A stretch of 39,220 nt of DNA, the filler included, from Cladosporium halotolerans (lineage: Eukaryota): assembly GCF_011745625.1 (NCBI RefSeq). It is 2 parts of 2 records of this genome, joined end to end, with 100 filler letters (N's around TTAATTAATTAA, not from the genome) between each part and the next. Parts side by side here need not be neighbours in the genome. Positions count along the whole stretch, not along the records: positions 19,735 to 39,220 come from NW_027191549.1; 1 more part is not named here. One strand, given 5' to 3'. The notes beneath the pieces are model-generated. The model made no database searches, was not told the DNA's origin, and saw only the letters and a program-made list of their open reading frames with translations. How positions within the stretch are numbered: the stretch's first letter is position 1; each line of letters starts with the position of its first letter. The position numbers were made by a program, and so were the translations under genes. Shown piece by piece: positions 17,847 to 39,121 of this stretch.

Positions 17847-18439
17847 ATGCCATCGAATAAAGACAGACTCTATCTCGCGCTCTATGCACGCGCAGGAAAG
17901 CCGAAAATGCCTGGAAAAGAAGATACGTGCGTGCGAAGCGCCATGATTTCCTCGGGCGCATGCGCTGACTTCGAACCAGATACCACTGGGCTTTGCTGGT
18001 AGGACCCAAGGACCCTTCCGGTGGAGCAAGAGGCGTCCGGTACCATGCAAAAGAGCGCCTCCAGGGAAATGGGAACACCCTGTGGGTCTTCGAAGAAATC
18101 ACCGCGTCTATGTTGGCGACTCAGATGATCCTGGTGCGTATTGCGATTGCAAAAGTGGAAAGCAGGCAAGATGTAGCCAGAAAGTTGCGTCTTGTGCCAG
18201 TCCAACAAGGACAAGAAGGTTGGAACTGCGTCTCATGGGTCAGGGACGCACTGCGAGAGCTTGCGGCTTCCGGAACTGGAATTGGCACCAGTGTCCTCGA
18301 CTGGGACACCGTATGCGCCGCAGCTATGTCGTACTGTCAACAGAAGCGAGACCAGAACCGGTTCAAGGAGGAAGGGGACTTCGACCAGACAGAAGTGGCG
18401 ACTTTCGACCTTATCGAGCAAAAGGAACTGATCCCTTGA
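17847..18439 (+). CDS. Conserved fungal hypothetical protein (DUF6914-like)
   Basis: MPSNKDRLYLALYAR exon, intron 17927-17979, then YHWALLVGPK...RYHAKE...WNCVSWVRDAL. Confidence 0.7.
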
Positions 18440-19634: not shown

Positions 19635-19734
19635 NNNNNNNNNNNNNNNNNNNNNNNNNNNNNNNNNNNNNNNNNNNNTTAATTAATTAANNNNNNNNNN
19701 NNNNNNNNNNNNNNNNNNNNNNNNNNNNNNNNNN
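19635..19734. other. Artificial 100-bp scaffold linker (N-run, TTAATTAATTAA, N-run)
   Basis: Symmetric N runs surround a palindromic 12-mer at 19679-19690 that places stops in all six frames. Confidence 0.97.
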
Positions 19735-19817
19735 TGCACATGACGCGACATGAATATGAACATAGATTTTTCCCACTGCACATGACATGAACATGGCAAA
19801 ATTATTGGACATGACTG
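19735..19817. mobile_element. Probable DNA-transposon terminus (hAT-like) with ACATGA subterminal repeats
   Basis: Repeated ACATGA/ACATG and a tgcacatgac direct repeat (19735, 19777) end at ttggacatgactg; the reverse strand reads CAGTCATGTCCAA. Lies at the contig edge. Confidence 0.45.
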
Positions 19818-20307
19818 TCGGTGTACTCTCTGATAGCTTCGGTCGTCCATCCGACGAAGATGAGTTAGTGCTTACACTCCTCGATTGCGGGGAAGCCTTG
19901 GAGACTGAACGCGTCCCTCGCCTTGTTACCTGTAGTTCAACAGTATGAGTCTCTTCAATTACCGATGAACGGCTGCGTCGGACAGCCCATAGTCTCCATT
20001 CCTAGCTTCGGAAATTGCAGTGCTTAGATGCACGAGTACATGGAACTCCTTGCCAATACATGCAGTGAGACGCATGATTAGCGCATTATTGCATCGACTT
20101 TATGCGCAGATTTGCAGGGGTTTTTCACATCCCCTAAGGCCGATCAATGAAATATAGCTCACCTGATTTATACATTCGGAAAACGTCGACTTGGAGTCGA
20201 GGCGTAGGATCGCAGCAGTTGTGTCAGTCATATACTACGGGCTTTGTCAGAATCAAGCCTGTTTTCGAGACTCATCTAATCACGAGGCGGCTGGGCTGTT
20301 ACCAATC

Positions 20308-20692
20308 ATGGACATCACGGCAGCAATTGACAGAGTGACACTTTACGTTCAAGAGAATCAGGCGACACTCGCAATAACAACGGCCTCACTTGCGACAATG
20401 GGTTTTCCTGCTATCATAACCACCGCTGTGTTTAGCGCGGCCGGATTGACAGCTAATGGTCCAGTAGCTGGTATGCCTTCTTGCTCTACTGTCGCCTGAT
20501 GACCTTCAGACTGACCACAGGTAAGGAGGCGCTTTTGCCCTGCTGCAGTCCACGGTTGGTGCAACACCAGCAGTGGCGGCAGTTTTGCAAAGTGCAGCGA
20601 TGGGTGGATACGGGATGGCTATTGTCAATGGGGCAGTGCAATCTGGCAGTGCTATCACTGGGGCAGCGGCATTCGTGTATGCAGCGCAGTGA
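20308..20692 (+). CDS. Small Gly/Ala-rich hydrophobic protein of the IFI6/IFI27 (ISG12, Ifi-6-16)-like family
   Basis: AAGLTANGPVAG joined through intron 20471-20525 (AAG acceptor) to GAFALLQS...AVLQSAAMGGYG, matching the G.T..G..AG...QS...A.LQS pattern. Confidence 0.65.
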
Positions 20693-21077
20693 GAGCATCA
20701 CAGACAAGAAAGACAGGTACCAAAGCAAACTCTGGGATAAAGACCGTTGCAAAACTGAACTTTTGGTTCACTGATGTTTGCTTGCTTGTGATTCAGCCTG
20801 AAACATGCCTTCTAATTCATCGACGATCTCATCGTGAAACAGGTCTTCGTCGCGGGAGTTGAAGAATAACTCGTCATTGACATCTTGAAATACCCTCACT
20901 TTCACCTATACTCATTGCAACAAGCTTTTGGAGAATGTCGAAGATGTGCTTTCTCGGCTGGTTGAGGAGAGTCACTGATCGATTTCAACCGTGTACCGTT
21001 TCATGACGTAAGAGACAGCGTGCCAATTTGGTACAATCTTCTGTTGAATCATGAGATATTCTGCTAACTCATTGAGC

Positions 21078-21971
21078 TCACTGCGATTCCAACCATTGAA
21101 TCACGTCTGCTTCCCTCATGACCTTCAAACCGTCAATGCTCAAGTGCTCCGATTCGTACCCCAGCTTGAAAACAACCATGCCATTGCCAAACGTCGCGAG
21201 ATACCGTTTTAGCTGCTTCTTGATCTTGCCATGTACATAAGGGTTGGACTTGAATCCGAACATGTTCTTGTATTCAACCCAATTCGTGCGGAAGCCACAC
21301 AGCCAAGTGGTTTCCAGGAACAACAAATCCGGCGTTGCTTTGACGACGTTGACGAATCCAGCTTCAATACCGAGCCGAATTCTTTGGTTTTGCTGCTCTT
21401 CAGTCATAGAGCCAGGCTGTAACCTTTGCAATTGCGCAATGAAAGCTGTTTCGGCTTCAAGGGCTTGCCGTGCTTTCATCGCCATCTCTACCTTTCGGAT
21501 GTCCTGTCCCTCTTGACTGTTGTCTGGTGGAAGAAGTCTTTTGGCGCCTTCTAGTATGGCGCTGACGATTTTTATATCCAACGTTGTCCCCGTCATTCGA
21601 ATGAGACCTTCGACTGTTGGATTTGCAAATCGAATTTTTCGTGCTTGCTGGAATAATGGCTTGATCACATTTGCTGGAATGCCATTGTATGGGGCCAATT
21701 TGCCTGGTGTATCGAGTGCGACAGGGTGGTCAACAACAAGATTCCGCTCATGTGGGCGTAACACTTGGTTGGTACGGACATGGGCATGCTGTGGGTTGTT
21801 GGCATTGTTTTCCACGTGATACGCAGCAGTGAGCATGTGCTGGTTGAAATGAGCTGGTTCCAGAAAGCCTTTACGACATTTGCGGCACCCCTTGTGGACT
21901 GGTTCTGAACGAATGTGACTCTGTAAAGAAAGCCAAGTAGCGAAATGTTGGTCGCAGCATCTGAGAACCAT
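21078..21971 (-). CDS. Zinc-finger plus TPD-motif (CDIN1/C15orf41-like) PD-(D/E)xK nuclease
   Basis: N-terminal CCDQHF...H..H and CRKCRKGF...H.....H fingers. C-terminal ATPDLLF...NWVEYKNMFG...QLKRYLATFGNGMVVFKLGY. Confidence 0.75.
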   Translation of the reverse strand: MVLRCCDQHFATWLSLQSHIRSEPVHKGCRKCRKGFLEPAHFNQHMLTAAYHVENNANNPQHAHVRTNQVLRPHERNLVVDHPVALDTPGKLAPYNGIPANVIKPLFQQARKIRFANPTVEGLIRMTGTTLDIKIVSAILEGAKRLLPPDNSQEGQDIRKVEMAMKARQALEAETAFIAQLQRLQPGSMTEEQQNQRIRLGIEAGFVNVVKATPDLLFLETTWLCGFRTNWVEYKNMFGFKSNPYVHGKIKKQLKRYLATFGNGMVVFKLGYESEHLSIDGLKVMREADVIQWLESQ

Positions 21972-22933
21972 CTCTGCACGAATCCAATCTTTGTTGCGAA
22001 GCTGAAGCAAGCGTAAGATGATGACGAACTCATTCACATTCAAAAACATGCGTCGCCGGCTGCGCATCTTGGTGTAGTTGACTAGCATGGCCAAGCTCTT
22101 CCCTAGCTTCACATGCGAGGATCACTCAAGAGGCACCATGCGGATGCACATTTCTTACTGATGCCAAGAATCTACCTGAAGGGTTTTCAATAAGTCATGC
22201 ATTGTCTTACGCAAGTATGCGTTGTTACACATTGCAGGACCTTGCCCGCAATTCTGTGTGTTGCGATGGAGCATTTCGGTGGAAGTAAGAGTGGTGGTCC
22301 TACAGCAAATCACATTTCTGACTCCAACCGGCTCTTGATACGAGTGCTGGTGATGTCTTCATCCATCTGAAAAAAACCCTGTGCTTCAGATAGGAGAATC
22401 AAAGCTCGAGGTAGGTAACTTTCGGGAATAGGAGCCGAGCTGAGATGCACTGACAAGCATCATAGCCTGATTGTGCGCGACCGTGAGTGAGAATCGTCTC
22501 ATTTGGTCAAAGTATTTCTTCGCGGATGCTCTGGCAACACCGCATCATTTCTATGCAATGCATGGCGTGAGGATCAAAGTCAGTGTCGTGAGTCATCTGC
22601 AATAACAGTAGGCATGGAATCCGATTGGTGGGGTTAGACTCATCGACCGTTCCCTTCCCATCCTAGCCAGTGGCAGCCTCACCCTGCATGATATGGAATG
22701 CATCTTTTTGATGATGGTTTGCTGGTCATGCGTCTTGACGCTTTGAGTGCGAGAGCTTGAATTGGGCAACGGCCGGAGACCCCTCACGCGAGGCTAGCTT
22801 TCAGCTCTTAGATGTCGTGTCCGGCCTCTCAACCGAACCCAGATTACCCTCTCCACGCAAGAGTGTCTACTAATCTCAAATCTACTCGTCAAAGCCTTGC
22901 GAGCGGTGGCAGACTACTCATGAACCTAAAATT

Positions 22934-23224
22934 TCACACATAGCACATTAATGACTCTACTGCAGGCGCAAGCTCTTGGACGGGCTCGGGCTCAGGCTCG
23001 GGCCCAGGGTCAGGCTTTGGGACAGGCTCAAGCTCAGGCACAATCTCCGACTCTGGTGGAGGATACCCATCGTCGGTGTCCTAAATAAACTCTGGTTTCT
23101 TCACCTTTAATCCAGAAACGTTGATCCGGGCGTAAATGTCTTTACTGATCGCACCCTCCAATAAAGCACCACCCAGGGCTCTTTTGACGTCGCTGATGAT
23201 CTTGGTTTGCTTGGATTTGGACAT
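22934..23224 (-). pseudogene. Small gene or gene fragment with a Pro/Glu repeat, interrupted by an in-frame TAG
   Basis: MSKSKQTKIISDVKRAL...PEFI*DTDDGYPPPESEIVPELEPVPKPDPGPEPEPEPVQE. The frame continues across the TAG at 23081-23083. Confidence 0.45.
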
Positions 23225-23599
23225 TGTACTGTTGTTGCGTCTTGCCAAGTGTATCCGGCTTAGGCAGCGGTGCGGGTTCGGATTGTTCAATAGTGATGAA
23301 TGCTATGCTTCCTTATCCAAAGAGAAGTCCAGCTCAGATATGAGTGGTAAGACAAGCCAAGAGGGTAGAGATGTCTTGACGAAAAATCACTTCCATTCAA
23401 TTTCTCTCATCTGGGTACTTATATAACTGGAGAATAAATTATGGGGTTGAACCAAATCTCTGAACTCGACTCAGAAGGAAAGAACAGTATTAGTCCAGCA
23501 ACGGGTGTTGAATCGTCGAGGCCTGCTATCTAGCACATGCTGGTCAGTGTTGATTTCGCGGAGCTTCGTGGAACGACCATACCCGTCCTTTGGAATCCA

Positions 23600-24079
23600 T
23601 TAAATCAACCTGAGGCTCGCTAGCTTGATGACCAAACTTTCGGTCAGGTTGATTGTTTCCTTGTCATTGTCACGGGCGACCTCGTAGAAGGTACAGTGAC
23701 CGGTGCTGCAAACGAAGTGAAGCTTTCGCCCTTTGTTCGAGCTGGCAACTTGAAGACGGCTCGGCATGTGACATTCGCATCTCGGGTTGACCAAATGGCT
23801 GCCTCGCTCGTCCAGGAAAGTGATGAATTTGTCACATGGCGAGCATTTCAGGTAAGGGCGATTGGCGTTCCCGTTTCTGTTACTCGTCCTCGTTGTGAGC
23901 CTAATGAGGCTTTTCCCACTTTGACAGCATATTGGGCAGCGAGGCTTCCTCGGCTCAGGCGGGTAAACCGGCTGCGAGGTATTTTCGTGCTTGACCCGGG
24001 TCATCTTGCTTGATAGGATGGTCGATCCGCAAATAGAAGTTGACTGATCTTTGCTTGATGTTTTCGAAAACGTCAGCAT
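23600..24079 (-). CDS. Tandem GRF-type zinc-finger protein
   Basis: CPIC...TRTSNRNGNANRPYLKCSPC..F..F.D followed by CEC...SRLQ...GRKLHFVCSTGHCTFY. The start may instead be the ATG at about 24004. Confidence 0.7.
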   Translation of the reverse strand: MLTFSKTSSKDQSTSICGSTILSSKMTRVKHENTSQPVYPPEPRKPRCPICCQSGKSLIRLTTRTSNRNGNANRPYLKCSPCDKFITFLDERGSHLVNPRCECHMPSRLQVASSNKGRKLHFVCSTGHCTFYEVARDNDKETINLTESLVIKLASLRLI

Positions 24080-24637
24080 ATCAAGTCGTGCCCATAACCT
24101 TGGAAAGGAGACGAGTGCATGCTAGCCATCATACCGTGGCCATCCTCATATACTACCAGTCGACAGGGTAAGATGGAGTTCAGGCAACACTGATTGCGCA
24201 GCAAGAGTACGCGTATTCAATCATGAATTTGGGTAGGTTTGAGCTTCTGGAAACTATGAATTCAGCGCCTAGCGCGAACCTCGGAGTTATGCTCAGTGGT
24301 CTACACTGAGAATGTTTTTCCAATTGCAGTAGAGAACTTCTAGTGTTTGATACGATCGTCGATAAGGTTAAGATTATATAACTTGGCTGGCTGGCGGCGA
24401 GTAAGCGCTAGATATTCCTATCTGATCAGATCCACGGTCTTCCTACATCGCCAAAAATAATCTATTGAAGCTTGTCGTAGCAACGGTACCCAGCATGTCC
24501 GGTCGAACTGACGTGAGTAGCATCCTTGATGCAAGACGCAGAGGCGCTTTCAGGTGACAAGCTCGCAATGAAGAGTGGTATTCTGAATACGACGACGATA
24601 TTCCCAGCCTAAGATGCGTGTTAGTCATCATTAAGCT

Positions 24638-25318
24638 TCAGTACCATTGTTGAGACTTGACAGGCTTCAGCCACAATCCCAATAGCAAGACACCCCTTTC
24701 AGAGTTTGTATTACTTTGTCGATCTGGACAGGAAAAGGCTTTGCGCTTCTCCTTCAATTGTACTATTCGCACCTTTAGCTCGCGAGCGTCACATCTCGTG
24801 AATGTTGACTTACGAATGATCTCCCATCCCAGACATTCCACGAAATCTAATACATCCCCAAGCAAATTGTAAGTACCTCTATGACCTAGTACAAGCGACG
24901 CCGATGTCTTACATAACGCTTCTGGTAGTCCGTACATAGAAGCAATAGCCAGAAGCAGCCCTAGATATCCAGCGTTGTGAGCAGAATTCGGCTCTATCAA
25001 GGCAGCAGCAGCCAACCCATTGCTGGGATACAAGGGTAGCAAGGTCTTACACATCAGTTGCTGTGGGGAGAGAAGAAGCTCAGTATCTGTGGTGAGTTGC
25101 GTTGACTTGTCGCCAGGTAGAAAGATCTCCCGTCTAGTGGATGCTTTGTCGATCTGCCCTTTTTTTTAAGTTTGAGCCTAACATCCTCGCAAATGGCTTC
25201 GAGGCATTACAGAGAAGACAGAATGATGCGAAGATCCGGACCTGGTCATCACCGAACACCAGCAAGATGTCTCCTCAGGGTCATTGTCCGCAGCGCTTGC
25301 TGGCATTGTTGACGTCAT
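24638..25318 (-). pseudogene. Frameshifted BTB/POZ-domain gene
   Basis: Across frameshifts it reads DP(E)GDILLVFGDDQVRIFASFCLLCNASKPFARMLGSN.K.GQ...REIFLPGD, then LLLAIASMYGLPEALCKTSASLVL. Shifts occur near 25275 and in the 8-T run at 25160-25167. Confidence 0.65.
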
Positions 25319-26881
25319 GATAGAGGTGGAGTGGCTAAAGCACGCTGATGGAATGCTGAGACCATGCGTTACTTGCTTCAGAGACGCTGATCGATGATGC
25401 AAGCAGGAATCTTCTTCCAAATAGCTCATCAATGTGAAAAGAGTCGGCGTGATCCAAGTGTGACATAGAACTACGCCTTACTCTGCAGGCATGTTATTGA
25501 AGTTTGGGATAATTTCGGTACTTTATTCCACTTCCGCGAGTGTGACATCGTTTCCAAATAATCTACCAGTATTCATAGCCAGCAAAATGGAGCTTGAAGT
25601 TGCAAAATATTAAGGATTGTTTTCCAAGGCACGTGTTTTACCCCGCAGCGATAGTTTCAACAACGCGATGCCCACCCCGCCTAGGAACCTTCAGCTTGGA
25701 TATGCAGGATGTTCATCCTATGTTTATTATCGAGGAAATTCTAAGACTGATAGTCGTAGGTAATGTCGTCACACGGCGGTATTGAGACATTAGATAGATG
25801 ACACTTGAACTCATCTGAACGGCTTAAGTCCCATGAACGGCAAACCCATAAGTCGTGTTCGACCAGACTTGGCTATATCTCTTCGAAGTGGTGGGTTGGA
25901 GACATTTCGTTGTATTTGGAGAAAATGACAAAATGTGCTCTGATTGCCAAGGCGTATATCTTCGAAGACCAGAGTACCCATCCCTGTACGTGTTGAGCGC
26001 AGTACTACGGCATTGTTGGGACGATCTTCAGTTGTGAATTTCATGAATTTTCCGTCACCATCCCGGGAGGTATGCGATTTGTCATTGAAAGACTTCGAAA
26101 GAAGAAACAAAGCTTTTATTGGTAGACCATTTACTATACTTTCTAAAACAATACCGAGTGTAATTCGAGAAAGGCTGTTGAAGGCAGCGATGGAGCTTCC
26201 CGGGAGACAGCGCAATCTGAATCTAACTAGCTAAACTTTATTCAACTCTGCTAACGAATCTAAATTGGAACCCAGCTTCGGCGGAGCGTAAAAAAAAAGC
26301 GGATGCAGAAATCCTTCGGTCCGACCAATGTGCGCACGCACCGCTTCGATAAATCAGACGACTCACTTTTGTGCACTTGGCAAGAAAGTCATTGAAGCAG
26401 CACTATGATACTGGGTTTCCATTGCTCATACTGTATTGACTGTGTAATGCGCATATGTGTTGGAGATTAATGCATCTATACATCTTCCCCCGAACACCCA
26501 AGCTTTCTCAAGATCGGACAAATGGATGGATTTGCTTTTCATAGATTAACGGTCTTTGTCGGACGTTAATCCAGTCTTTGAGAGCTCGTCCACGTTCCAG
26601 CTCCCCCGTACGCGGTAGTAGATGCTGGTGAGACCATCTGTGGTCCGCGGACCGAAGGATTCATGCTTTATCTCAAGCCAGAAAAGCTCTTTGATGATAC
26701 GATGGTACACAATGAAGAATTTCTGCACCTCCGTGTAGGATAGTCTGTTCGACCGTGACCTGCCTTGAGTTAACTCATGCGTTGCGGAATGGCTGTTCGA
26801 TACGTCTGCAGCGCTGACGATCGGTTTACAAGATTCTCATCGCCGCCGGCAGTCAAAATATCACGAGTCGATGTCATGATT

Positions 26882-28468
26882 TCATCCTCTTCCGCTCACA
26901 GCTGCGTTGCCGCAACTACTCTCTCTCTCATCCCCCATCGACGACACCAATTCTGATCCCCGAAATCTTTGAAGTGAGTCTGGATGGAGCAGATGAGACT
27001 CCAAAATGTCGCCTTTGTCGATAGGGTGAAGCGAGACACGCCGAATACCCTCTGAATCCGCCTCCCACATGTAAGGTTTCAAAGCGTATGCGCATACTGA
27101 CGTGCGGTTGAGGATTTCAAATACGTCATTGAGGTCTGGATCGCCGTTGTCATCTATCGGTACTGCAAGTGGTAGATCTGGCCGATTTTCCAGGGCCTCC
27201 AGACCCTCGTTGGATGCGATTGAGAGCACTTGGATGTCCCTATCCAACCGAACGCGTGTCTCTTCTCTCTTACACATGCTGGAAAGCCTCTTCACGCCAG
27301 CGAGGCACACTTGTCTAGCTGTGATAGCATCAGATTCATCCGGATGATGGCGGATGTAGTGCGTCGCTAGAGCCATGAGACACAGCTCTACCCCTGCGGA
27401 TTCGCCGATGCCAAACTCTTGCAGCACTTTGAGAGACGGTGTCAAGGTATCCGCTTCCGGTAGGACGAGAATATGAAACAACACGCAGGGACAGGAAGCG
27501 TAATCACACTGCGCTTCTTGTTCTTTGATCTTTTCTTGATCTTCCGTTTCCTCGGTGAAGATGTCGCGGAGTCGCTTGTAGCGTTGATGGTGATAGTGCG
27601 AAGTCCATGTTAGTATCAAGGAGCACAGAACTTGTGCGAGATGTCTATGTAGCTTCGAAAGGCTACTGCTAGAGCGCAGAGCAAGGACATGCCGCATAAC
27701 GTCGGCGCACATGACTTGCAGTGCAGATGTGTTGTCAAGGGCGTCCAGGATTCGACCATGTCGCAAGACCCGTCCCAGCCATGATCTCCGCAGAACGACA
27801 GCATCCAGTGGGGTGTAGGTATGCTGCAAGCACCAGACATGTTCGTCTCCCTCAAGCTGTCTGTCTTCCTTTGGTGTTTGACCTTTGACCCACAGCCACA
27901 GTTGTGTACTTTTCTGGTCCAGTAACGACAGCGCACGTAAAAGGTCTTCTTGGCCTGGCACTGAACCGTCGCCTTCGCTCCAGATATGACAGAAAACTGT
28001 CAGTAAAAGAGGCCTAGTTTCTCGGAAAGCGTACTGTTTCGATGCCAAGATGGCCAACCAGAAACTAAGAGCGTCTAGTGACACGACCGCGTTGGAGCTT
28101 CTGGTATCTTGGGACGCGGATCGGCCGTCTCTTGTTTGAGCACAGACACTGATGTCTGCCAGGAACACCCGCTTTTTGTCTTTCCGAGAGAGGTCATCGA
28201 GGCGGATTGCTGAGGTCGAAACCACGGGTATGAAACGCTCGGGTGACAGCTCTTCGCTCGCGGCAAAGTGAACCCGGACGAACTTTGCGGCTTTGAATAT
28301 CGGTCCGAGCCTATGGTGAAATGTTTTGTTGACTGCGCAAAGACTTGGCTGTATCTTGTAGCAGACGTGATCTTGTTCGACACTCAGCTCCGCCGCGGAA
28401 GTGGAGAGGAGAGAACCTAAGCATAGCAGAAGGATCTCTTCGGGCAATCTCACGAAAAAATCACACAT
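26882..28468 (-). CDS. Hypothetical 528-aa protein with N-terminal F-box-like motif
   Basis: Long ATG-initiated ORF. FFVRLPEEILLLCLGSLL...SLCAVNKTFH resembles an F-box with an insertion. The remainder is unrecognised and the 3' end may be spliced. Confidence 0.6.
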   Translation of the reverse strand: MCDFFVRLPEEILLLCLGSLLSTSAAELSVEQDHVCYKIQPSLCAVNKTFHHRLGPIFKAAKFVRVHFAASEELSPERFIPVVSTSAIRLDDLSRKDKKRVFLADISVCAQTRDGRSASQDTRSSNAVVSLDALSFWLAILASKQYAFRETRPLLLTVFCHIWSEGDGSVPGQEDLLRALSLLDQKSTQLWLWVKGQTPKEDRQLEGDEHVWCLQHTYTPLDAVVLRRSWLGRVLRHGRILDALDNTSALQVMCADVMRHVLALRSSSSLSKLHRHLAQVLCSLILTWTSHYHHQRYKRLRDIFTEETEDQEKIKEQEAQCDYASCPCVLFHILVLPEADTLTPSLKVLQEFGIGESAGVELCLMALATHYIRHHPDESDAITARQVCLAGVKRLSSMCKREETRVRLDRDIQVLSIASNEGLEALENRPDLPLAVPIDDNGDPDLNDVFEILNRTSVCAYALKPYMWEADSEGIRRVSLHPIDKGDILESHLLHPDSLQRFRGSELVSSMGDERESSCGNAAVSGRG

Positions 28469-29391
28469 CGTCTCTGATGCTTACCGCGAGCGGCGCTTGC
28501 AACTGGAGAGAATCGTTTGACCTCGTTCCTGGCTAGTTCAAGAGCATATTCCCGTCAATTCTGGTGAGACGTCATTTGCGCCCGCGCCACAACATGTGGA
28601 CTCCGCACAATGTGACATTGCTTGGAGAAAGTGGGTCTCGGCTGAAACGTACGCCGGCCCGCTTAAAGGGCCAAGAATTACTCGAGCCGTACGAAAGCAG
28701 CCGTTCAGTCCGAATCAAGGAACCACAGGCCGGGCTGTCGGTGGGCCTGAGCCGTCCCAATCGCTACGAGTGCTCGCGCTTGGAGCGACAAGGATGTTCG
28801 CTGAGTGGAGAGAGCCAAGCAAGGCTGCTTGCACACCAGTCCTTTCCATGTGATCGCGCCCTACAGTATCCGGTCGCTGCGCATGACACTTGAGTCTATG
28901 TAGTTGTGGCTGCAGGGAGGCTTGTCTCATCCGGCCGTCCGCCGCTGTAATCGATGAAGCGCAAGACCCTGCATGCGCCATGCAACACTTTCTGGTCGTC
29001 ACGCCCCGGGCTTTTGCAATTTCTTTGATTGGTATTCATGTCATTGTGCTTCAATGCCCTGATTTGTGTTCACGGGTATGGAACATAGAGAACACATTGC
29101 ACTCGAGAATCCTCGAGAGAGCGGCGTTGAACGGAGGATGGTATTCAAGCTGCGACCAATCAGCCATTTCCTCGGGAGCAGCTCGGTATGCAATATACAG
29201 CCGGTCTGTGAACGTGCGGATCACCCATATCGGCAAATTGTCGCATCTCGCTAGCTTTCTCGGCAACTTCACAAGTCATCACGCGTCACGTCTAGAGAGA
29301 GCAACACGGTCTACGGAGCAGAATATTACGCTACCTCTACCCATGAGCTGGGACTTCCACGCATTTAATGGCGCTTACGAAATACATAACA

Positions 29392-29766
29392 ATGTCGACA
29401 CCTGCGCAAGCTGCGCGTTCCGGTCGGATCCAACCTACGCCAAAGCCTGCTGGCCCCAACGCAAACAATGTGTTCAGCGCGTCGGACGGACAGAATAACG
29501 ATCAGCCACTTTCACAGCCCGCGCGACCCAAGGGGCTTCAAACGGCCGCCAAAATCACAACATGGACCGCTGCAATCGAGCTCGGCGCGTCGAACGGTCA
29601 GGCGGTGATAAAAAAAGCTAGGAGGCGAATGGGAATTGGTCAGATGGGCGCAAGGCGTGGGCGCAAGCAGTATAGGAGGAGCCGAGGCTTCAAATCCACA
29701 ATTTCATTCTGCCATATCTCAACCGCGTTGACCCACCCATGCCAGTGGGCAATCTCCACCATTTGA
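29392..29766 (+). CDS. Possible small basic low-complexity protein
   Basis: ATG in a good fungal context (ACAATGTC) and an open frame only; no recognisable domain. Confidence 0.2.
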   Translation: MSTPAQAARSGRIQPTPKPAGPNANNVFSASDGQNNDQPLSQPARPKGLQTAAKITTWTAAIELGASNGQAVIKKARRRMGIGQMGARRGRKQYRRSRGFKSTISFCHISTALTHPCQWAISTI

Positions 29767-29806
29767 ATCAAAACAGGACGTCAGATGTGCTTCTTCTTCC
29801 AAAGGC

Positions 29807-31165
29807 TCATGAGACACTTTCCATCCTCGCTGTCGTGATGCCGATCGTGGACTCGAACCTTCTCCGTGGACGTACACCGTGTCGTAATGATGCGTAAGAC
29901 ATCTCTCTAGTGGCATCTGCCATGCGCCTTAGTATCCCTATGTCTGCATCCGTCTTTGGCGTAAGCTCTTCCCAGCGCGGAACAGTCCATTTGACCCAAA
30001 TATTACCATGACAAGGCCGCATCTGCGTCTGCAAACAATGCTTGCGGAAATACAAGGCGCAACAGTAACACGATGGCTTGCTGCATGCGATGTATCTGTC
30101 ATCGTCGACAAATTTCAAATCTTTCAGGTAGAAGTACTCCAACATGATCACCTCAGCGTGTGGCCTTGTTTTCAGCTTCTTCCTTGTATTGGCTGAATGA
30201 AACCATTTGACCAAAGAGTCCGCTTTTTGCATTCTTTCAAGTAGTGCTTCACACATGGGGGATTCCTTGAAGTTGGGGAACACTCGCAAGATCAAGTTTC
30301 GCAGGTCTTGATCTAACTGCAAGCAGATTTTCTCGTATTTCGGAGGCTGTACCGATCGCACAACCGCATTACGTATGATGGAGAGAAACTGAGGTGCATA
30401 GACAACGAGAGATATCGAGACCTTCTCCCAGTGGCCCAAGCGAGCTACCAGGTGTCTTGCAGGGGGAAAGAGATCGCTTGCACCCCCCGCAATTGATCCC
30501 TTCAACAAGTCGTATGTCGCAGAGTGTCGGAATACGTGTGCAGCCTTGCAAAGATCATAGTGGCATTCCCTTTCGCCTAGTACAGCTTGTATGCCTGCCC
30601 AGATAATGGCTTCCCACTAGAGTCAGTTGCTATTGACGATCCGACATCTGATGGGAAGGAACTCACCGCTGGACTGAGTATCATCGTCTTGCGCCAAGCT
30701 CTTCTCGGCAATGAGACGATCAAGCCTATCCACGTATGCGGATATTCGATCCCAGCTACGTTGCACCGAACGAAGAGTGATCTCAGCCACGAAGGACTGT
30801 GTATCCGATCCTTCAAGAGAAAAATCGGTGAGAAGGTGCAAGATCTCTTCCAAGTGCCGTCGCGCGCTTTCTTGATGGATATCCGTGGTGGTGATCCAGA
30901 AAGTGACACCATCCGTTCCTTGTTCAACGCCAATAGACACAACGCTTTGCCCTGCATGTTCGGAGTCACAGAGGAAACAGAGGTCGTCCAGGAAGTGATG
31001 CCACATTGACCGGGTGTCAATACTGGTGCTCAAGCTCTGTGCATCCCTAGCATCCGAACCTGATCCATGCTGGAGGAGGCTTAGCAGGAAGAGACTGTCG
31101 TAAAGATCCGACGAAATTGCAGCAGGGTCTTGACTCAAGGTGTAAGACTGTTCGAGGCTTGCCAT
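29807..31165 (-). CDS. OTT_1508-like nucleic acid/nucleotide deaminase
   Basis: N-terminal FLDDLCFLCDSEHAGQSVVSIGVEQ...FWI and catalytic PHAEVIML...YIACSKPSCYCCALYF...CHGNIWVKW. The two exons join in frame via intron 30610-30666 (GTGAGT...CTGAC...AAG). Confidence 0.82.
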
Positions 31166-31465
31166 TCTTGCGTGGTAAGCGCCATCAAAGTACCTGGAGG
31201 TGAGAATACATGGTATATATATGTGTCTTGGGTCGTGGCCACCTTGGTGGAGCACTATGAACGTCCTGCAATATGGGATGCAGTGGCACGACTGGTCTAT
31301 GCAGTACGGCCCAAATACACAGCGAAAGCACTGTTCCCTCGATTGCCGCAATGAAATCATTGAGATGGCGGCGACGCTGGATCTACAGAGGCACATTTTG
31401 TACTTAAATACGGATCGTCAATCGCTCGGCGGATGTCCCTCGTCCCTTATGTGCTCATCAAACAT

Positions 31466-32269
31466 TCAGACCACGATCCCGATCGCCCGACAAGCTGCCC
31501 TATTTGCCAAGTGCTTTGCCTGTTTCTTCGTTCTACCCAATCCCTGATGCTGTGATCCATTGACATAGACACGAGCAGAGAAAAGAAGCGGATTGACAGG
31601 GGACCGCTCAATGTCACACCGCGCCTCCTTTCCAACCCTGTCCCCATACTCTTTGAGTGCCATGCTGTAATGTGCTATATTCGTTTCCAACGGAACCCCC
31701 GGATCTTCGAAATACACGTCTCCATCTTGACGAGCAGGCTGACCTCCACTTGCAGGTCGGTTGATCTCAGTCGGCTCGCGCTCGTCCGAGCTTCCTTCGC
31801 CTTCGACCAATCTCCTCAATTCCCTTTCACCATCTGAGATCGTCAACCTCCCTATAGCAACGCAATAAGTGCGGAAATCCGACGCTCGCGTCATGACACC
31901 AGCCTCTCCCGGTGGATGAGTTCTCGCGCTTCCAATTAGTGCAAGTCGGGCTGCATAAGGAATGCTGGCTTTAAGTCGAATCAACTCCATCTACAAGTTA
32001 CCACATGATTAGCTATCTATGATTGTTGCGTGGGATGATCTTGAGCTCACTTTTAGGTCATCTGGCGTAGCCGTGGCTGCAGAATGGATGACAACATGTC
32101 GTGCGAGTCGAGAATCTAGCACACGCTTGCCGAGCCAGTAAAGATTTTCCTGGTTAGCAGTGTTCGCCGTGCGCTCTGAGCTGAGGTGTTCAAAGTTCGA
32201 GTCATCTGACAAACCATCATCAGAAGGATGATGGGATCTTGTGACTTCGTATTCAAACGGTGAGGACAT
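31466..32269 (-). CDS. Protein with a C-terminal double-stranded RNA-binding domain (dsRBD)
   Basis: YSMALKEYGDRVG...FSARVYVNGSQHQGLGRTKKQAKHLANRAACRAI matches the dsRBD G.G.(S/T)KK.A...A consensus. Phase-0 intron 31991-32050. Confidence 0.8.
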
Positions 32270-33010
32270 GGCTCAACGACGGTGAGTTATTTGGGTTCTC
32301 GTCTGCCAGATGGCTAGTGAGTCTAATTTTTCCTGAGACGAGGCGACAGAGTTCTTTTATGTCTACCCATCGTAACGTGACTCATGGTGTAAGTACGTTC
32401 GATAATTAGGACGCAAGAACGGGTGAGCCTCTATCGAGGATCTGAGCTTGAAGGACCCAAACATTGAGCGGCTCGCGAAGTTGACTCATACAACGACAGC
32501 TCGCAGTGCTACACACTCCTTGGGCACGCCTGCAGACTCCCAAAGTAAAACTTCAATCGTGCGATATAGATGTGGGATGAGCATAGCAAACGATGGCTTG
32601 TTCTGCCTGTAGAGGCGTTGCAGGGGCCGTACGGCGTTTTAGCGCTATATTCGGTGAGCTTTATTGTCATGCATTGCATGCAGCATGCACGCGACATCTG
32701 ATGTCTTGAAGCTTGGGGCTTGTAAGAGCTGATCGAATGATCGCATTATTCCAAGCGATCAAAATAGCGGTGAGTAAAACCTCGATGACTCAAATGATCG
32801 TGAGGTCATACTCCCCGTCAAGGCTTTCGTATCCTCATTTACGGAATAGTAACTCCACCGACTCACCCTTACACCCCAAAATGACAACACGAGAACTCAT
32901 TTGTGCTCTTCAGAAGGTGATACCCACACAATAATGAAGAAAAGGGATTCTCACTCGGCCAATAGTATGACACGGCGGCACTTGACGAGATCCTTGGTCA
33001 TTTGTACACG

Positions 33011-33730
33011 ATGCAGAAGGACAAGAAGAGACGCTCCAAATCTTCGACCTATACAATTCAGAAGCGAGGCGCTCGCGATAATTCTCGCATTGAGAAGTTC
33101 TCCACCTATACTGGCCCTGACTCGACGACTCGTTGGATCTTAGCCAGTAATAGTGTGCAATGGACGAAGAAGCCTCTGTCCTTTTGGGTGCCACCTAATC
33201 ACCCTCTGGAGAGCAACGCAACCCCCGGCGAGCTGATCAAGTTCTACATCAACGCCAATTGCGAAGACCATTAGTCTCGCATGGCTCAGCGTATTGCTTG
33301 CATTGTGCTGCTAGAGCTCCACTCCGACTTTGGCAAGCCGACGGTGGCCGCGCTTGCGCATACGGTGACGATGGGTGCAGGCTCTGCACTTCCGCCCATG
33401 GACATTGAGAAGACAGTCAAAGATATGCTCGGCCACGGCAGCCGATACAAAAATATGGAATTGGCCCTTGGCCCCGGGATATGCCTTGTGTTGGGATGCG
33501 CTTTATCCGAATCGCAGTGAGACACTTCCTCCCGTATAGGAAAGCCATCTGCTGACAGCTTAAGCTGGAACAAGCTATTGACGAAGAGCGGACGTCTGTT
33601 CGATTCAGTGATCGCGCAGGTGAGAAAGACAGAAGCTCTGCAACTCGCTGGAATTTACGCGCCTCTTCAGGCCGAGATTGTGAGACAGAAGATATTGGAT
33701 CTCAAGCAAAGGAGCAGATTTCGAGGTTAG
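33011..33730 (+). pseudogene. Hypothetical gene with a single in-frame TAG (5' end uncertain)
   Basis: ORFs 33002-33274 and 33281-33520 are one frame split only by the TAG at 33272-33274. Intron 33517-33564 leads to HWNKLLTKSGRLFDSVIAQV...FRG*. Confidence 0.55.
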
Positions 33731-34179
33731 GCAAACGATCGTCATAGAACTGGTTGATCTGGGAGAATTCGTTTTTTCGCCACTGTCAGCAGGCTTTCAT
33801 GTATTGAAAAGCCGTGCATCCTGGATGCTATTACAAGAAAGCCCAATCACCCTCGCGACGTACATCCTCGAGCAAACCATTAAGATCATTGATCCTGGAG
33901 GTCATGCTACTCCAATGTGATATCAAATTTCTGCCATACGGGTGGCAGACTCAGTGAAGAAGTATGCCGTCAGTTGTCTGAAAGTTCACATTGACTCTGC
34001 CATGGAAGGTTCTTACTTGGTTTGTCCTGAACGCCTGCCCAACCACTATGATTGATTGCAGTGAACACAAAAGCGTAGGACTGGCGCAATGGAGGAATCA
34101 CTCGGATGTCCTGGTCGCTCAAGGACATCTGACCCAAGTACCGATTGTTCAGTTGTAATACGTCAACTACGCTCGTACC

Positions 34180-36717
34180 CTATTCTACTGCTTTTGCTTT
34201 CTTCTTCTTCTTCGTCGGAAGGCTCTGTACGTCATTCGATATCTGCAGCGTCCGGGTATTGCCGCCATCGACGGTGATGGATTCCTTCTCAATATCAAAT
34301 GCAAGTGTATCGGTAGTCATCTGTTCTCCGCTTGATGATGGCGGCCATTCTGTCTTTACTTCCTCCGGACTCGACTGCTGATCCCCGACCATGTCTCTCA
34401 CCCTGTTGCGTAACTTGGCATCTCCAACGTCAGTTAGATGAAACGACGCTTCTTCTTCGTCCCGATCGAAAGCTGCAGCGCAGGGCTGACTTTTCCCTGC
34501 TTTGTTGGCAAAAGAGCGTAAATGACAGTGTGACATTATGCAGTAAGTCACTTACTCAGAGACCGAAAGCTCACGTGTTTCCTGCATGTCTCCAGCCCCA
34601 ATTCGAGTATTTGTATGGTTCTTGTCAGGGAATTGCGTTGGTCGGTGTTGATCGCCGGCTCTTTGGCGATCCTGTCGATCTCGAAGGCTTCCATCTCGAG
34701 AATTTTGGCAGGAGTCAAGATATCAGGAAGTGGTTTGATCAAAAGGTCTTCCCAGCACTGAGTGGCGACGTTATCAACGACGTTCTTCATTGCAACCTAT
34801 AATCAGATAAGTAATTGAAGGAGATATCAAACGAGAAGTAGAGCCTACTCTGTAGAATGCAAGCATGCAATCGACCGCTTCTCCACAAGCGTAACGGTCC
34901 ATGTCAACCTCGTTCTTTGCTGAAAGTGCGGATATCAAACTCGACTTCTTCAGCTTTGTGAAGTTGAGTTCCTCTAAAGCTTCGCCATCACGAAGGTGGA
35001 GGAAATTACGTAGCTTTTGTGTCAGATCGTCTTCCATCCTCTTGGTTCTCACATTCTGAATGGTCTCTGTAAAATAGTGATTGTAAGTTATGGGGTGTCC
35101 TGATTTGTACTGGTCGAGAATTGAGTCGACTTTGGCACACATGTTGACAAGTCGCTGTTGCAAGTCCGGATCGACGAGCTCGCGCATGATAAGTTCAGCC
35201 GTTTGCTCTTGCGTAAGATGGTTAAATGCTGATTCTAGAAAATCTCTTGCAGCACTCCATATGTTTTCGACAAATTGAAGGGCGATGGATCTCCATGGTG
35301 TACACTGCTCATGGAACAGGTCGGCAATGAGCATAGGATTGAAAGTCCCCGGTATCTCTCTACCTCTGCTTCTAATCAGAAGAGATTTGGCGTGCTCGAG
35401 GTATTGATTGCGACTCATGTGTGTGGGCCCCGACGCCCGTGGCAGGGCGTTGGCGTCGTGTTGCGAGGCAATCTGATAGCGGTGACCGCGGGTACGCATC
35501 GTTTCCGCGAATTCTAGTCCCAAATTCTGCACAGATGCCCTGACCCTGCGGCCGTACCCATCCCCTGAAAGAGGGTCGCCGAAGAAGGAGTCTCCGTATA
35601 CACCATCGATCGCTGCGCGTGCAAGATGCTGATAGCTTTGAGCTAGGTGCAGAAGAAAGCTTCGTTGTTCACTTGTAGTCTGACGCTTTTGGCCTAGCTT
35701 CCGAACTTCTGTGCGGCAATTGGACAATTTTAGTTCGATATCCATGATAAGATCTGGTAATTCGTGCTTGATCTGGCCCAGTAGGACTTTGCTGAGACGC
35801 GACCTAAGACTCGCCACTCCCACAACTGCTCTCGGCAGCTGACTCCACGCCCCTTGGCTGAGGAAGGCGGTCTCGCTTTGGTCTCGATGCTCCGAAGAGA
35901 CATGCCGAGAATCGTAATCTCGGTTCTTCAAAACATGCCACCCAAGATCAAACGAAACGTCCTCATTTCTCGCAAGACTGACGAACTCCGATTCACTGTC
36001 AGAGCCCGCAGAGAGTGTGTCCGGTTTTGTGACGATCCCCAGCGTGCGTAGGCCGTGCGGGTCAGCCTGCCGTGCCATCTTGAGCACGATTTGGTTGGCG
36101 TAGTCATTTTTAGCAGAGACGATGGCCAGTATGATTGACCTGCGACTTGTCATGTATCGCTGTACTAGCGACCGTACGAGCTCGATGTCTTCGGCGGACT
36201 GGAACTTGTTGTGCGAATGTATGAGCCCTGGCAGATCAACGATAGTCAAATGCGGTCGGTCAGGTCCGGAGATGTCGATGCGTAAGACGTCGTCTGTAAA
36301 TGCACTGCCGCCGTCCACGACACCCATAGTCGTCTTTGCCTCCTCGAGGACCTCCGCAAAAGCTGTGAGATCGGTCAACATCATGTTGAACTGTTGCAAC
36401 TTCTGTGTTTCAGTCGGTTTTCTCCCGGGACCGGGCGTGATGGTGACCGAGACTTGATCGGCCGATGTTCGTCTGAGGACAACCTCTGTGGCAAACCGAG
36501 TACATAAGTTGTCTTTTGTCGGGAACGGGATCCCGGAGATGGCTTCCAAAACCGAGCTCTTACCGGAGGATTGGTCGCCGCAAACAACCAGCTGAGGTAG
36601 TGCAACTAAGTGACTAACACCGTGGGACCGTAGTTTGTCAATGTCATCGAGTAATCGGACGTCAGAAGGATGGTGGATCGGTTGTAGAATCGTCTTTGTC
36701 TCTGTTGTCCTCTCCAT
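34180..36717 (-). CDS. Mx-like dynamin-family GTPase with GED and a spliced C-terminal tail
   Basis: Motifs LPQLVVCGDQSSGKSSVLEA, CTRFAT, IVDLPGL, IVTKPD, LGWHVLKNR, RGREIPGTFNP, TYNHYF. Intron 34797-34848 leads to the GED (VAMKNVVDNVATQ). Intron about 34497-34555 (GTAAGT) joins in frame to a tail ending KKKKKAKAVE*. Confidence 0.92.
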
Positions 36718-38506
36718 TGCGAGACTTGGTGTGGGAGGTGATGGATGAAGAGTTATCGAAGACTTTTGACAGAAGACGACTGGAGTCTCGTACTTGTATC
36801 GTCCGTTTCGAATTTCGCTGATAGTGTCAGTGCGTGGAAGTTTTGACCGATCAGAAGTGCTCTAGCGGCATCTGCGAGAGGACCAATCGACATCGACAGC
36901 CTGTTCCAGAACTTACGATGAGGCATATAAAGTACTTAGATGCGATCATAGGGTTCTCGACCAAAGTCACCAATGAGTCATCAAATCTGCTGCCCGTTGA
37001 CTAGGAGCTCACCAAGCCAATCACTCTGATGCGAAGCTTCAGTGCCCGCGAAATCCTGAATACGACCTCTAATCCCAGGGCTGTCCTGAACACTGTAAGC
37101 TCGTGGTGTGAACAATGTTGGTTCAGATTGTCAACTACATGCTGCAATGTTCAGAGTCGCACGCCCCAATTGCGGGGCGTACGGTCCTCTCGCAGAGCCA
37201 TCAGCAATCTGATCGTAAAATCTCTTCGGCCAGCCATGGAAGCGCTCCGATTTGGGTTCGTGAAGCTATCCCGTGGCTGAGTGTGACTTCCCTGGAGACC
37301 CGTGTTGGATTGGGCGTGAAGGCATGGCCAATGCATCACCTTATCATTCCACCATATATATCTAGGGGCGTTCTAGTGCAATGAAGCAGGTTGTTTTAAT
37401 TGGGGTGCTCAAAGCACTATACCGTACGGCATTTTAGCGCGCGGAGATCGTGGAAGACTTTCTGCATCAGATGGGAGGCAAGATGTGAATGCCAAGGATT
37501 CAAGCGGCTCGGTATTATATGTGTCTTAGCAGGGATTAGAACGGCAAGGGACGGGTACACGCGGGCCGTGTAAGCGAAATTGGGAGACGCCGACACGCTG
37601 GCCGCTGACTTGCTAAGCAAAGAAATCAAAGTCGATGCGTATGAGCATAGGTGATCGAGGCGCAAGCCTCCGCCACGGCTTCCGCTTGCTTCTGGATCGT
37701 CTTGGATCGAGCGCATCATGACTTGGGTGCTCGGCGGACTGACTTGCTCGAGATGCTTGTGCCTTCTTCGTCTCTCTGTGACGGGCTTTGTCTGTTAGTC
37801 GAAAGCTCCAGGTCAGTTCCGCAATGAGGCCAAGTCAATGTTCTTGCCGCTGATGGATTAGTCGATTGAACTACACTCTCTCTGCGCTGACGCGCTGTGC
37901 ATCTGCGACTTACGGCTTGCAGTTTGGTACGACAAGCAAGCTGACCCTGTACGCTAAGTCTATCACAGCATCAGAACATCAGCAGTGCTGTAGCACTTTT
38001 CAGCAAGGCGAGCTGCAGTCGTACTTAAGTCACGCAGTGCTCTTATTGACATGACGATGTAAATAAGCAAAGGGAAGCAATATTCGGCCGAAAATGTCAG
38101 TAGACTGAGCTTTCGGGGTCGCGTCGTGGCGGTAGGAAGTCGTGGCAAGGATGGCCGCGGAGCCAATCTCTATTGACAGCCATTCAATCATGCAGCGTGT
38201 CATCCCCGTTATCGCTCGGTTCGGTCCTTGTTGCGGACCGATCCGTCAACTCCCCTCAAGAGCTCAGTACACGATCGTGACACGTTACGCCGGATGCAAG
38301 ACACGGCCAAACGTGACGCACGTATCGATCATGTCATCAGGACAAAGAAGCTTCATGTTACTTGTGTTGTCCAGTGGCAATCCCAAGCTTTCTCGTAGTG
38401 ACACTTCCAGGACGCACTCGATCGCCTCAACAGCCTTCAAAGGCTTTGGCAGTAAGAGACGGGCGAGTCTCCGTCTGGCCCTCAATGTGGCTTCTCTTTT
38501 GCTACA

Positions 38507-39121
38507 TCATTGGTCTGGTTTCGCGGGCACCTTCTTGCATACTTTGGCAGATGCGGTCAGATTTCCTTGAGCCAGTGGGCCACTTTCTGTAAAACCCTCC
38601 ATTAGAACCTCCCATGTGGAGGGGTTTCCATTCTTCTTGATGGGAACTTTTTCCTGCCCGGTGTTGCAAATCTGTCCGCCATTCTCTCGTGTGATATCAA
38701 TAGCGGTGACGGCGTGTCCTTCCTCTAGCTCGTCTTGGTACTCTTGTTTGATGGCTTCAAAAAGGCTTTCGTGTGTTCTAATTCCGCTCAAGGGTATGAG
38801 ACCGATCATCCGCTTTGATTCTCCAATGTACAATTTTAGCCATCTAGTCAGCCCAGACGCGGTCGGTGCGTTGTTTGCAAAAGGTGACAAAGTCGCTAGG
38901 TGATTTGCGACATCGTTCCTCTGTTGAAGTAGGACATCCTCAACACGTCTCTCATCTGTACCGAAAGGTTGCTGAACGTGTGTGCCCGACTTTGGTGATC
39001 CCGGACAACTGCCGCAATCTACGTTCGGTGAGCCTGCGGAATTTTGAGACGCCTTAGATGACCCGGATTGCTTTCCGAATAGTTCCAAATCCCCAAGCAT
39101 TGCGATTTGAAAGGTCTGCGG
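38507..39121 (-). pseudogene. 3' portion of a hypothetical gene cut off by the terminal repeat element
   Basis: About 200 open codons with a globular-looking C-terminus (WLKLYIGESKRMIGLIPL...ESLFEAIKQEY). The upstream frame runs into the (GCTT)n element. Confidence 0.45.

Follow-up and report, generated by a model that had tools for sequence, protein, structure and literature searches.

To our knowledge, only two systems of adenosine-to-inosine (A-to-I) editing of messenger RNA (mRNA) are recognised in fungi, and here we describe a locus that may, on balance, hold a second version of a switch in which a genomic neighbour is edited: in a stretch of 39,220 nucleotides from Cladosporium halotolerans (assembly GCF_011745625.1; hereafter the window), an OTT_1508-like deaminase gene, a gene for a protein with a double-stranded RNA-binding domain (dsRBD), a gene that we call X and an Mx-like dynamin gene lie together at positions 29807–36717. 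The closest described system is OLD–ZAO of Neurospora crassa (Honda, Yokoyama and Suzuki 2025, as given in PMC12754623 and, in excerpt, in PMC13327615), in which OLD deaminases convert a premature UAG to UIG in zao-1 and zao-2, the zinc-finger genes beside them (PMC12754623). This editing prefers hairpin loops and a U at position −1, requires cofactors that are still unidentified and is induced by mycoviruses, and with it an antiviral role has been published for the OTT_1508-like deaminase family in Neurospora (PMC12754623). Control by RNA interference (QDE-2) is a further feature of the system. OLD–ZAO has been reported from Eurotiomycetes, Sordariomycetes and one basidiomycete, whereas the fungi treated here are of Dothideomycete type.

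CHE1 of Fusarium graminearum, a ZAO homolog of 310 residues, has a conserved TAG that is followed by three C2H2 fingers (PMC11169179, in excerpt). Tad2–Tad3–Ame1 of Sordariomycetes resembles the switch proposed here in that it acts by A-to-I conversion on UAG codons that lie in hairpin loops and have U at −1, premature stops among them; unlike it, that system works genome-wide, in the sexual stage only and through a tRNA deaminase, with an editor unlinked to its substrate genes (PMC12754623). Roles in defence that evolve rapidly have been proposed for eukaryotic OTT_1508-like deaminases by Iyer et al. (PMC3239186, in excerpt); in fungi, the uncharacterised MxF dynamins form the sister group to the antiviral Mx proteins of animals, with 0–5 copies per genome (PMC11789081, in excerpt). 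The original prediction for the window, that positions 20308–36717 form an innate-immunity island of eight gene families resembling interferon-stimulated genes, came with the remark that no description of such a combination was known, which overlooks both OLD–ZAO (PMC12754623) and the MxF dynamins (PMC11789081, in excerpt). A literature search that left aside Honda et al. 2025 and its supplements, which possibly list other neighbours, returned no dsRBD partner, X-like substrate or MxF linkage described for OTT_1508 deaminases.

Results

A gene interrupted by a conserved TAG beside a deaminase gene

The predicted island, and with it the four genes at its right-hand end, lies wholly inside one 19,486-base part of the window (19735–39220, from NW_027191549.1), which is preceded by two 44-base runs of N (19635–19678 and 19691–19734, 12 bases apart). 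The window sequence is fungal in character, with spliceosomal introns and a G+C content of about 50%. The right-hand genes and their elements are as follows.

29807–31165, minus strand: OTT_1508-like (OLD-type) deaminase gene; predicted exons 31165–30667 and 30609–29807, 57-nucleotide intron 30666–30610, 433 residues predicted
31466–32269, minus strand: dsRBD partner gene; exons 32269–32051 and 31990–31466, 60-nucleotide intron, 247 residues
32270–32880: intergenic region of about 610 bases between the divergent starts of the dsRBD gene (32269, minus) and of X (32881, plus)
32881–33730, plus strand: gene X; exon 1 32881–32916, exon 2 32966–33516, exon 3 33565–33730, introns 32917–32965 and 33517–33564
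33254–33285, plus strand: predicted RNA hairpin; the 3'-most base of its 5-nucleotide loop is the A of UAG, and the G of UAG closes the stem
33272–33274, plus strand: in-frame TAG, codon 115 of X; candidate A-to-I site at the A of position 33273, UAG to UGG (Trp)
34190–36717, minus strand: Mx-like (MxF-type) dynamin gene; ATG at 36717, main exon to about 34800, C-terminal exon(s) to about 34490–34190

To compare the locus with others, we searched metagenome contigs with a deaminase profile (alignment A1). The 39 fungal loci collected in this way, each flanked by at most 10 kb of sequence on either side, were searched with the window proteins (tblastn) and with local hidden Markov models (HMMs). 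The deaminases were grouped at 90% identity into 27 clusters, leaving out one locus (L031, a 67-residue match). Clusters were taken as informative for X where at least 3.4 kb upstream and at least 1.6 kb downstream were visible (n = 14), for the dsRBD partner where at least 1.5 kb upstream was visible (n = 17), and for the dynamin where at least 8 kb of flank was visible (n = 15). Matches to Pfam were judged against its curated gathering scores.

The most telling element of the locus is X, a plus-strand gene with a conserved in-frame TAG that the original prediction had missed. It emerged between the dsRBD and dynamin genes when all frames of 32270–34800 were compared with the collected loci, and its relatives adjoin the deaminase in 14 of the 39 loci, or 12 of the 27 clusters (tblastn and HMM). 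Of the 14 informative clusters, 9 have X beside the deaminase. Two orientations of X occur: head-to-head relative to the dsRBD gene, and tail-to-tail relative to the deaminase gene. The head-to-head layout with the dsRBD gene seen in the window also occurs in L002, L006/L007, L012, L016 and L018, and the intervening 32270–32880 is presumed to be a promoter region shared by the two genes.

A TAG is present at the same codon in all 14 homologous loci and in the window copy, and its surroundings are conserved as coding sequence, with ..D[A/E/P/T] before it and SR[M/I]..R..C..L after it. In each of the 14 loci the frame stays open beyond the TAG and is conserved, with 27–70% identity to the window copy, and the changes between loci in this part fall mostly at third codon positions (1058, against 724 and 588 at the other two). 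Ile follows 'SR' in 5 of the 12 distinct sequences, and there is therefore no conserved restart ATG beyond the TAG. The third-position bias and the lack of a conserved ATG together suggest that the downstream frame continues the same protein, rather than being the tail of a pseudogene or a second gene; read through codon 115, X would have about 247 residues. That X is a pseudogene was ruled out by the open, conserved frame after the TAG and its third-position-biased changes.

The splice of intron 2 is fixed by a homolog that has lost this intron (L032, 471–1367) and reads ..AETHWTKLL.. at that place. A TGA at 33518, considered as a second premature stop, was ruled out on the same grounds, as it lies inside the 48-nucleotide intron that L032 has lost. 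In most homologs intron 2 occupies the same place, usually with an in-frame stop, and one locus (L036) keeps an open in-frame insert there.

In a wider search, 499 cluster representatives among 1.84 billion proteins matched the X profile, with the TAG read as W, at an E-value of at most 1e-3. Among the best 150 of these 499, 74 are N-terminal pieces that end at the TAG site and 25 are C-terminal pieces that start just after it, so that 99 are cut exactly there; 9 skip the site, 40 run through it and 2 are of other kinds. Six of the run-through relatives carry Trp at the site, in line with the proposed recoding. This recalls CHE1, in which a premature TAG midway along the gene is conserved and predicted to fall within a hairpin loop, and whose gene models are likewise truncated, split or given a false intron (PMC11169179, in excerpt). 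Truncated and full-length forms of one gene were sought in the 90% clusters of the relatives with W at the site, and only single-member clusters were found. One relative, P0267 (726 residues, named as a protein of Carpinus fangiana), is a gene model from a plant assembly in which an OTT_1508 deaminase domain is combined with an X-family N-terminus; it is probably a fungal contig in the plant assembly in which two neighbouring genes were merged, with a true fusion as the alternative.

X matches no Pfam family. An AlphaFold2 model of the L032 homolog is all-helical, with a moderate mean predicted local distance difference test score of 68.9; it has no Foldseek match in the PDB at an E-value of at most 1e-3, and the best Z score in a wide VIA-align search is 4.5. 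The ESM Atlas gave no usable match for a natural full-length relative, P0239. C2H2 fingers were also sought: the window and the 39 loci hold no tandem C2H2 pattern, X and its relatives have no zf-C2H2 Pfam match, and none of the 150 relatives shows such fingers. A ZAO-like gene beside the deaminase was thus rejected as a candidate, the C2H2 pattern search having found none in the window or the 39 loci.

The TAG lies in a predicted hairpin loop

When the 13 distinct 63-nucleotide contexts of the TAG were folded, the A of UAG lay in a hairpin loop of the minimum-energy structure in all 13, compared with 16% of flank shuffles, and this A has a U at −1. On the alignment, the hairpin of the window type leaves 80.1% of cells paired, against 21–47% with slid partners; its covariation score is 0.346, against 0.06–0.08 with slid partners, a value reached by none of 500 shuffles, and three of its pairs have changes on both sides, all within a region that is also coding. 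A UAG codon can become a sense codon by A-to-I editing only, not by C-to-U editing.

The TAG of X might also be decoded without any help from the neighbouring deaminase, by structure-stimulated read-through or by Tad2/Tad3 editing, with the deaminase having some other job; we regard this as rather unlikely. Structures that stimulate read-through usually lie downstream of the stop codon, and not around it. Fungal Tad2/Tad3 does share the preference for hairpin loops and for U at −1, and often targets UAG (PMC12754623; PMC11156358, in excerpt); its activator Ame1, however, has been described for Sordariomycetes (PMC12754623), and this route is not expected here because C. halotolerans is a Dothideomycete. 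Linkage also speaks against it: in 12 of 27 clusters, spread over deep branches of the deaminase tree, X has an OTT_1508 deaminase as its neighbour, and nothing in Tad2/Tad3 editing requires this.

An OTT_1508-like deaminase, proposed to be of the OLD type

The deaminase gene, whose splice model was drawn from the sequence alone, matches OTT_1508_deam (PF14441) in 29807–30616 on the minus strand with 67.1 bits against a cut-off of 27 (E-value 1.4e-18), and its N-terminal exon is homologous to full-length relatives. Its HAE and CSKPSCYCC motifs are intact, and in alignment A1 the columns H153-A154-E155 and C183/C185/C186, which make up the HxE...CxxC zinc/catalytic centre, are invariant. We propose that it is an OLD-type enzyme, with putative specificity for adenosine and putative orthology to Neurospora OLD-1/2. 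In a FastTree phylogeny of the deaminases, those linked to X were found in nearly all clades.

The similarity to OLD–ZAO extends to the arrangement of the genes: in both, an OTT_1508-like deaminase with the HxE...CxxC centre adjoins a gene interrupted by a conserved UAG, with a U at −1 relative to the A and the A itself within a hairpin loop, and in both UIG would give Trp and a full-length protein. The neighbour in OLD–ZAO is a C2H2 zinc-finger transcription factor, whereas X has no C2H2 finger and no Pfam family, and it also differs in this from CHE1 with its three fingers after the stop (PMC11169179, in excerpt). X therefore lacks the defining feature of ZAO, while the logic of a gate at a stop codon is common to both. 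A dedicated dsRBD gene stands between editor and substrate in many of the loci examined here, and an MxF dynamin is often near; both set these loci apart from OLD–ZAO.

A dsRBD gene precedes the deaminase gene

From the end of the dsRBD gene it is about 300 bases to the deaminase ATG (31165), on the same strand. The dsRBD gene matches dsrm (PF00035) in 31466–31990 on the minus strand with 25.5 bits against a cut-off of 23 (E-value 2.1e-5), and homologs score up to 35.1 bits; the protein is 100% identical to the annotated WHR41_09405 of C. halotolerans, and a contig of run X1 that connects 31990 to 32054 shows the spliced form. Among solved structures, the protein is matched best by the dsRBD of ADAR2 (E-value 8.1e-9), and the dsRBDs of PACT and TARBP2 are matched as well. 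A homolog lies directly upstream of the deaminase, on the same strand, in 8 of 17 informative clusters. In several strains of Friedmanniomyces endolithicus, the dsRBD and deaminase proteins carry consecutive accessions and locus tags:

KAK0906835/KAK0906836: dsRBD/deaminase pair of F. endolithicus
LTR57_017558/017559: dsRBD/deaminase pair of F. endolithicus
LTR29_017714/017715: dsRBD/deaminase pair of F. endolithicus

One locus, L022, holds two convergent dsRBD–deaminase pairs, at 8567–10780 (plus) and 14951–12933 (minus), with a short-chain dehydrogenase gene between them, and an X gene (6914–7651) at the first pair only.

We considered whether the two genes are a single fused, ADAR-like gene, and ruled this out by the stop codon, the spacer of about 300 bases and the separate ATG; the separate annotation of both proteins in F. 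endolithicus contradicts it too. ADAR and the system proposed here have in common a dsRBD and a zinc centre of the adenosine-deaminase type, aimed at structured RNA. They differ in that dsRBD and deaminase are here encoded by separate genes about 300 bases apart, that the deaminase belongs to the OTT_1508 clade and not to the ADAR/ADAT clade, and that the proposed target is a single loop adenosine and not a long duplex RNA.

A related explanation is that the deaminase and the dsRBD protein act as a two-protein counterpart of ADAR, in a mutator or hyper-editing defence aimed directly at viral or transposon double-stranded RNA (dsRNA). X would then be unrelated to them, and its TAG either a true stop codon or evidence of decay. 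The canonical dsRBD with ADAR2 as its best structural match would fit this, as would the defensive role proposed by Iyer et al. for OTT_1508-like deaminases (PMC3239186, in excerpt) and the presence of a Dicer gene beside the deaminase in L013. X, however, is not decaying, as its open frame and third-position bias in the 14 loci show, and an invariant TAG in a conserved hairpin is not expected of an unrelated neighbour; moreover, few edits are reported for each OLD enzyme, chiefly in neighbouring genes (PMC12754623). We consider hyper-editing decidedly improbable.

An Mx-like dynamin gene near the deaminase

The dynamin frame (34774–36861, minus strand; ATG at 36717, in agreement with the end coordinate of the original prediction) has the Dynamin_N (E-value 7e-35, 121 bits) and Dynamin_M (E-value 8.3e-21, 74.9 bits) domains in the architecture of Mx and MxF proteins. 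Its best solved-structure matches are Mx1 and Mx2 (E-value 4.5e-33, 118 bits), with Vps1 at 102 and Drp1 at 99 bits, which suggests that it is Mx-like and may belong to the Mx/MxF clade. More than 5000 relatives, typically 50–60% identical, are found across Pezizomycotina, and the patchy, multi-copy distribution described for MxF (PMC11789081, in excerpt) is likewise seen for this family. Within the visible flanks of at most 10 kb, 5 of the 27 clusters have a dynamin gene near the deaminase; of the 15 clusters in which 8 kb of flank or more can be seen, 4 do. In the closest locus, L002, the C-terminal dynamin exons are colinear with those of the window, and the order from dynamin C-terminus to deaminase to BTB gene is the same, with the F-box-like gene of the window missing. 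The linkage of such a dynamin to a putative editing module does not appear in the excerpt consulted of the MxF description (PMC11789081).

The recurrence of these associations bears on the explanation that there is no functional link at all, and that lineage-specific genes have come together by chance on a small, fast-changing accessory contig. Consistent with this, the genes lie on their own 19.5-kb contig with a G+C content lower than that of the left half of the window, several open reading frames (ORFs) have no family, and one gene, the BTB remnant, looks broken. Against it, the loci that show the deaminase–X, dsRBD–deaminase and dynamin associations again have deaminases with no more than 27–45% identity to that of the window, and their wider surroundings differ. 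Given the 0–5 MxF genes per genome (PMC11789081, in excerpt), a dynamin within 10 kb would be expected in well under 1% of loci, which is a rough estimate and not a computed control. As an account of the whole stretch, chance assembly is very unlikely indeed; it is contradicted for the four-gene core and fits best for the five genes to the left.

The left-hand genes are neighbours outside the conserved module

The five remaining genes of the predicted island are the following.

20308–20692, plus strand: IFI6/IFI27-like small Gly/Ala-rich protein; two exons, 55-nucleotide intron 20471–20525, 109 residues predicted from sequence
21078–22121, minus strand: TPD-domain (PD-(D/E)XK-type) protein; Pfam TPD PF14811, E-value 3.4e-12
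23600–24121, minus strand: GRF-like zinc-ribbon protein; Pfam Zn_ribbon_GRF_2, E-value 6.9e-17
24638–25274, minus strand: BTB remnant, with a frame change between 25134–25274 and 24638–25165
26882–28480, minus strand: 532-codon frame, called F-box-like in the original prediction; no family

Five of the eight domain calls made originally are borne out by Pfam (TPD, GRF-like ribbon, OTT_1508 deaminase, dsrm and dynamin), and seven of the eight genes do lie on the minus strand. The F-box-like call is not: the frame at 26882–28480 has no Pfam match, and its N-terminal 67 residues give no F-box match even at an E-value of 10. For the IFI6/IFI27-like protein neither exon alone matches Pfam, and the call is a weak lead, from an ESM Atlas match at rank 4 (score 0.85) to a cluster in which 60% of the members carry PF06140. 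The supposed zinc-finger nuclease of the PD-(D/E)xK type keeps its TPD domain, while its C2H2-like motifs stay below the cut-off (zf-C2H2_4, E-value 0.0014; zf-C2H2, E-value 0.025). The BTB call is weak too, with an E-value of 0.12 for the piece at 25134–25274, and a homologous ORF is intact in L001 and L002 (Pfam BTB E-value 1.3e-4 in L002); it is plausible that the window copy is a pseudogene, as had been suggested, because it needs a frame change relative to the intact ORF of L002. Over the GRF-like gene (23694–24096), two contigs of run X1 show 19 and 15 differences over about 260 and about 170 bases, which suggests a diverged second copy or a related strain.

Relatives of the IFI6-like, TPD, GRF-like and F-box-like genes are found by tblastn in none of the 39 deaminase loci, and relatives of the BTB gene only in the two closest, L001 and L002. 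These five genes are neighbours on the same contig, outside the conserved module. A clustered locus of the defence type, as originally envisaged, holds for the right-hand third, where deaminase, dsRBD and dynamin genes recur in divergent fungal loci; for the eight families as a unit it is not supported. In the metagenome loci, co-clustering beyond chance was seen for deaminase, dsRBD gene, X and dynamin. That the whole 16-kb stretch is one innate-immunity island of eight families resembling interferon-stimulated genes is, in our judgement, unlikely. Five of the eight domains are real and three of them co-occur elsewhere, and nucleic-acid-related genes beside the deaminase at L013, L016 and L018 (Dicer; PDDEXK_12 and HNH_2; AAA_11/AAA_12 with CCCH) lend some flavour of a variable defence neighbourhood. 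Set against this are the four families without a relative in any locus, the unconfirmed F-box call and the weak IFI6 lead; a Zn_ribbon_3CxxC gene, which in L002 stands where the window has the 532-codon frame; and the housekeeping genes that flank the deaminase in L034, L037 and L039.

Several neighbourhoods deserve mention in their own right. In L002 (7854–8408) and L005 (2909–3418), both on the plus strand, a Zn_ribbon_3CxxC gene (PF13695) and two or three BTB genes come after the deaminase. L013 has a Dicer gene (834–5083, minus; DEAD, Helicase_C, Dicer_dimer and two Ribonuclease_3 domains) divergently upstream of the deaminase (6625–8044) and X (9359–10003), with no dsRBD partner, so that an RNA-interference gene and the editing module share 10 kb. 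Downstream of the deaminase module, L018 carries an AAA_11/AAA_12 helicase with a CCCH zinc finger (13831–18413, minus), and L016 a PDDEXK_12 nuclease and an HNH_2 protein (9856–10767 and 15777–17174, minus). L016 and L018 hint at variable nucleic-acid-related neighbours around deaminase modules; in L034, L037 and L039 the neighbours are ordinary housekeeping genes. The left half of the window holds ordinary genes (GDT1, TrkH, GST, an F-box protein, PARP and an APH-type kinase), among which the PARP gene (14735–16823, plus; WGR, PARP_reg and PARP catalytic domains) and a true F-box protein (14061–14432, minus; Pfam F-box E-value 5.6e-6) lie outside the finding reported here.

Discussion

We hold with moderate confidence that 29807–36717 is a conserved module and represents a second version of the fungal switch in which the RNA of a genomic neighbour is edited. 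Its observed basis consists of the domains, their recurrent adjacency, an invariant TAG with coding sequence on both sides, and the hairpin. From Neurospora OLD–ZAO we carry over the editing itself, the part of the deaminase as the editor, the binding of the dsRBD protein to the deaminase, the viral trigger and the role of full-length X, and on this analogy the switch would work as follows. With a genomic TAG at codon 115, unedited X mRNA would give only a 114-residue N-terminal piece. The adjacent deaminase would deaminate the A of UAG, presented in the hairpin loop with U at −1, and the codon would then be read as UGG (Trp), giving full-length X. The dsRBD protein could be an RNA-binding cofactor of the editor or its dsRNA-sensing licence, and the nearby Mx-like dynamin may be a co-regulated effector.

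A number of points weigh against this reading. For the OTT_1508 clade, Iyer et al. originally predicted deamination of cytosine (PMC3239186, in excerpt). The partners are often missing, with 5 of 14 informative clusters lacking X, 9 of 17 lacking a dsRBD gene and 22 of 27 clusters showing no dynamin, and the loci are metagenomic, several coming from one sample, so that these and all other cluster counts are not counts of independent taxa. Among the 39 run-through relatives that could be scored at the TAG site, the commonest sense residue in these paralogs is His (25) and not Trp (6), followed by Arg (3), Tyr (2), Gln (2) and Leu (1). RNAalifold returned no consensus structure around the TAG, since the register is shifted in three of the sequences, and the hairpin that was tested had been derived from the window sequence, which favours it. 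Among the contigs of four runs compared with the stretch, the lone one over the TAG (33080–33389), from a run only guessed to be RNA, has a single difference from the window. Finally, the fold and function of X have no solved-fold or family match to draw on.

More speculatively, and as a possibility about which we are doubtful, many Pezizomycotina may carry a linked antiviral circuit in which the dsRBD protein senses viral dsRNA and licenses the OLD-type deaminase, X is recoded from UAG to UGG, and full-length X launches a response, perhaps growth arrest or altruistic suicide as with ZAO, with the Mx-like dynamin and, in some loci, Dicer or nucleases as co-regulated effectors. If this is true, these fungi would possess a counterpart to the ADAR/PKR/Mx set of animals that works by recoding a stop codon, and the cofactor sought for OLD enzymes would be the dsRBD protein, which is in any case a concrete candidate for that role.

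For editors of the OLD type, the locus suggests a second family of substrates, and a widespread one, with 499 cluster representatives. Most representatives of the X family appear to be mis-annotated as fragments cut at the TAG, and the rule that the TAG provides would let annotators repair split gene models. The module may also give a first genomic hint of what the uncharacterised Mx-like dynamins of fungi work with.

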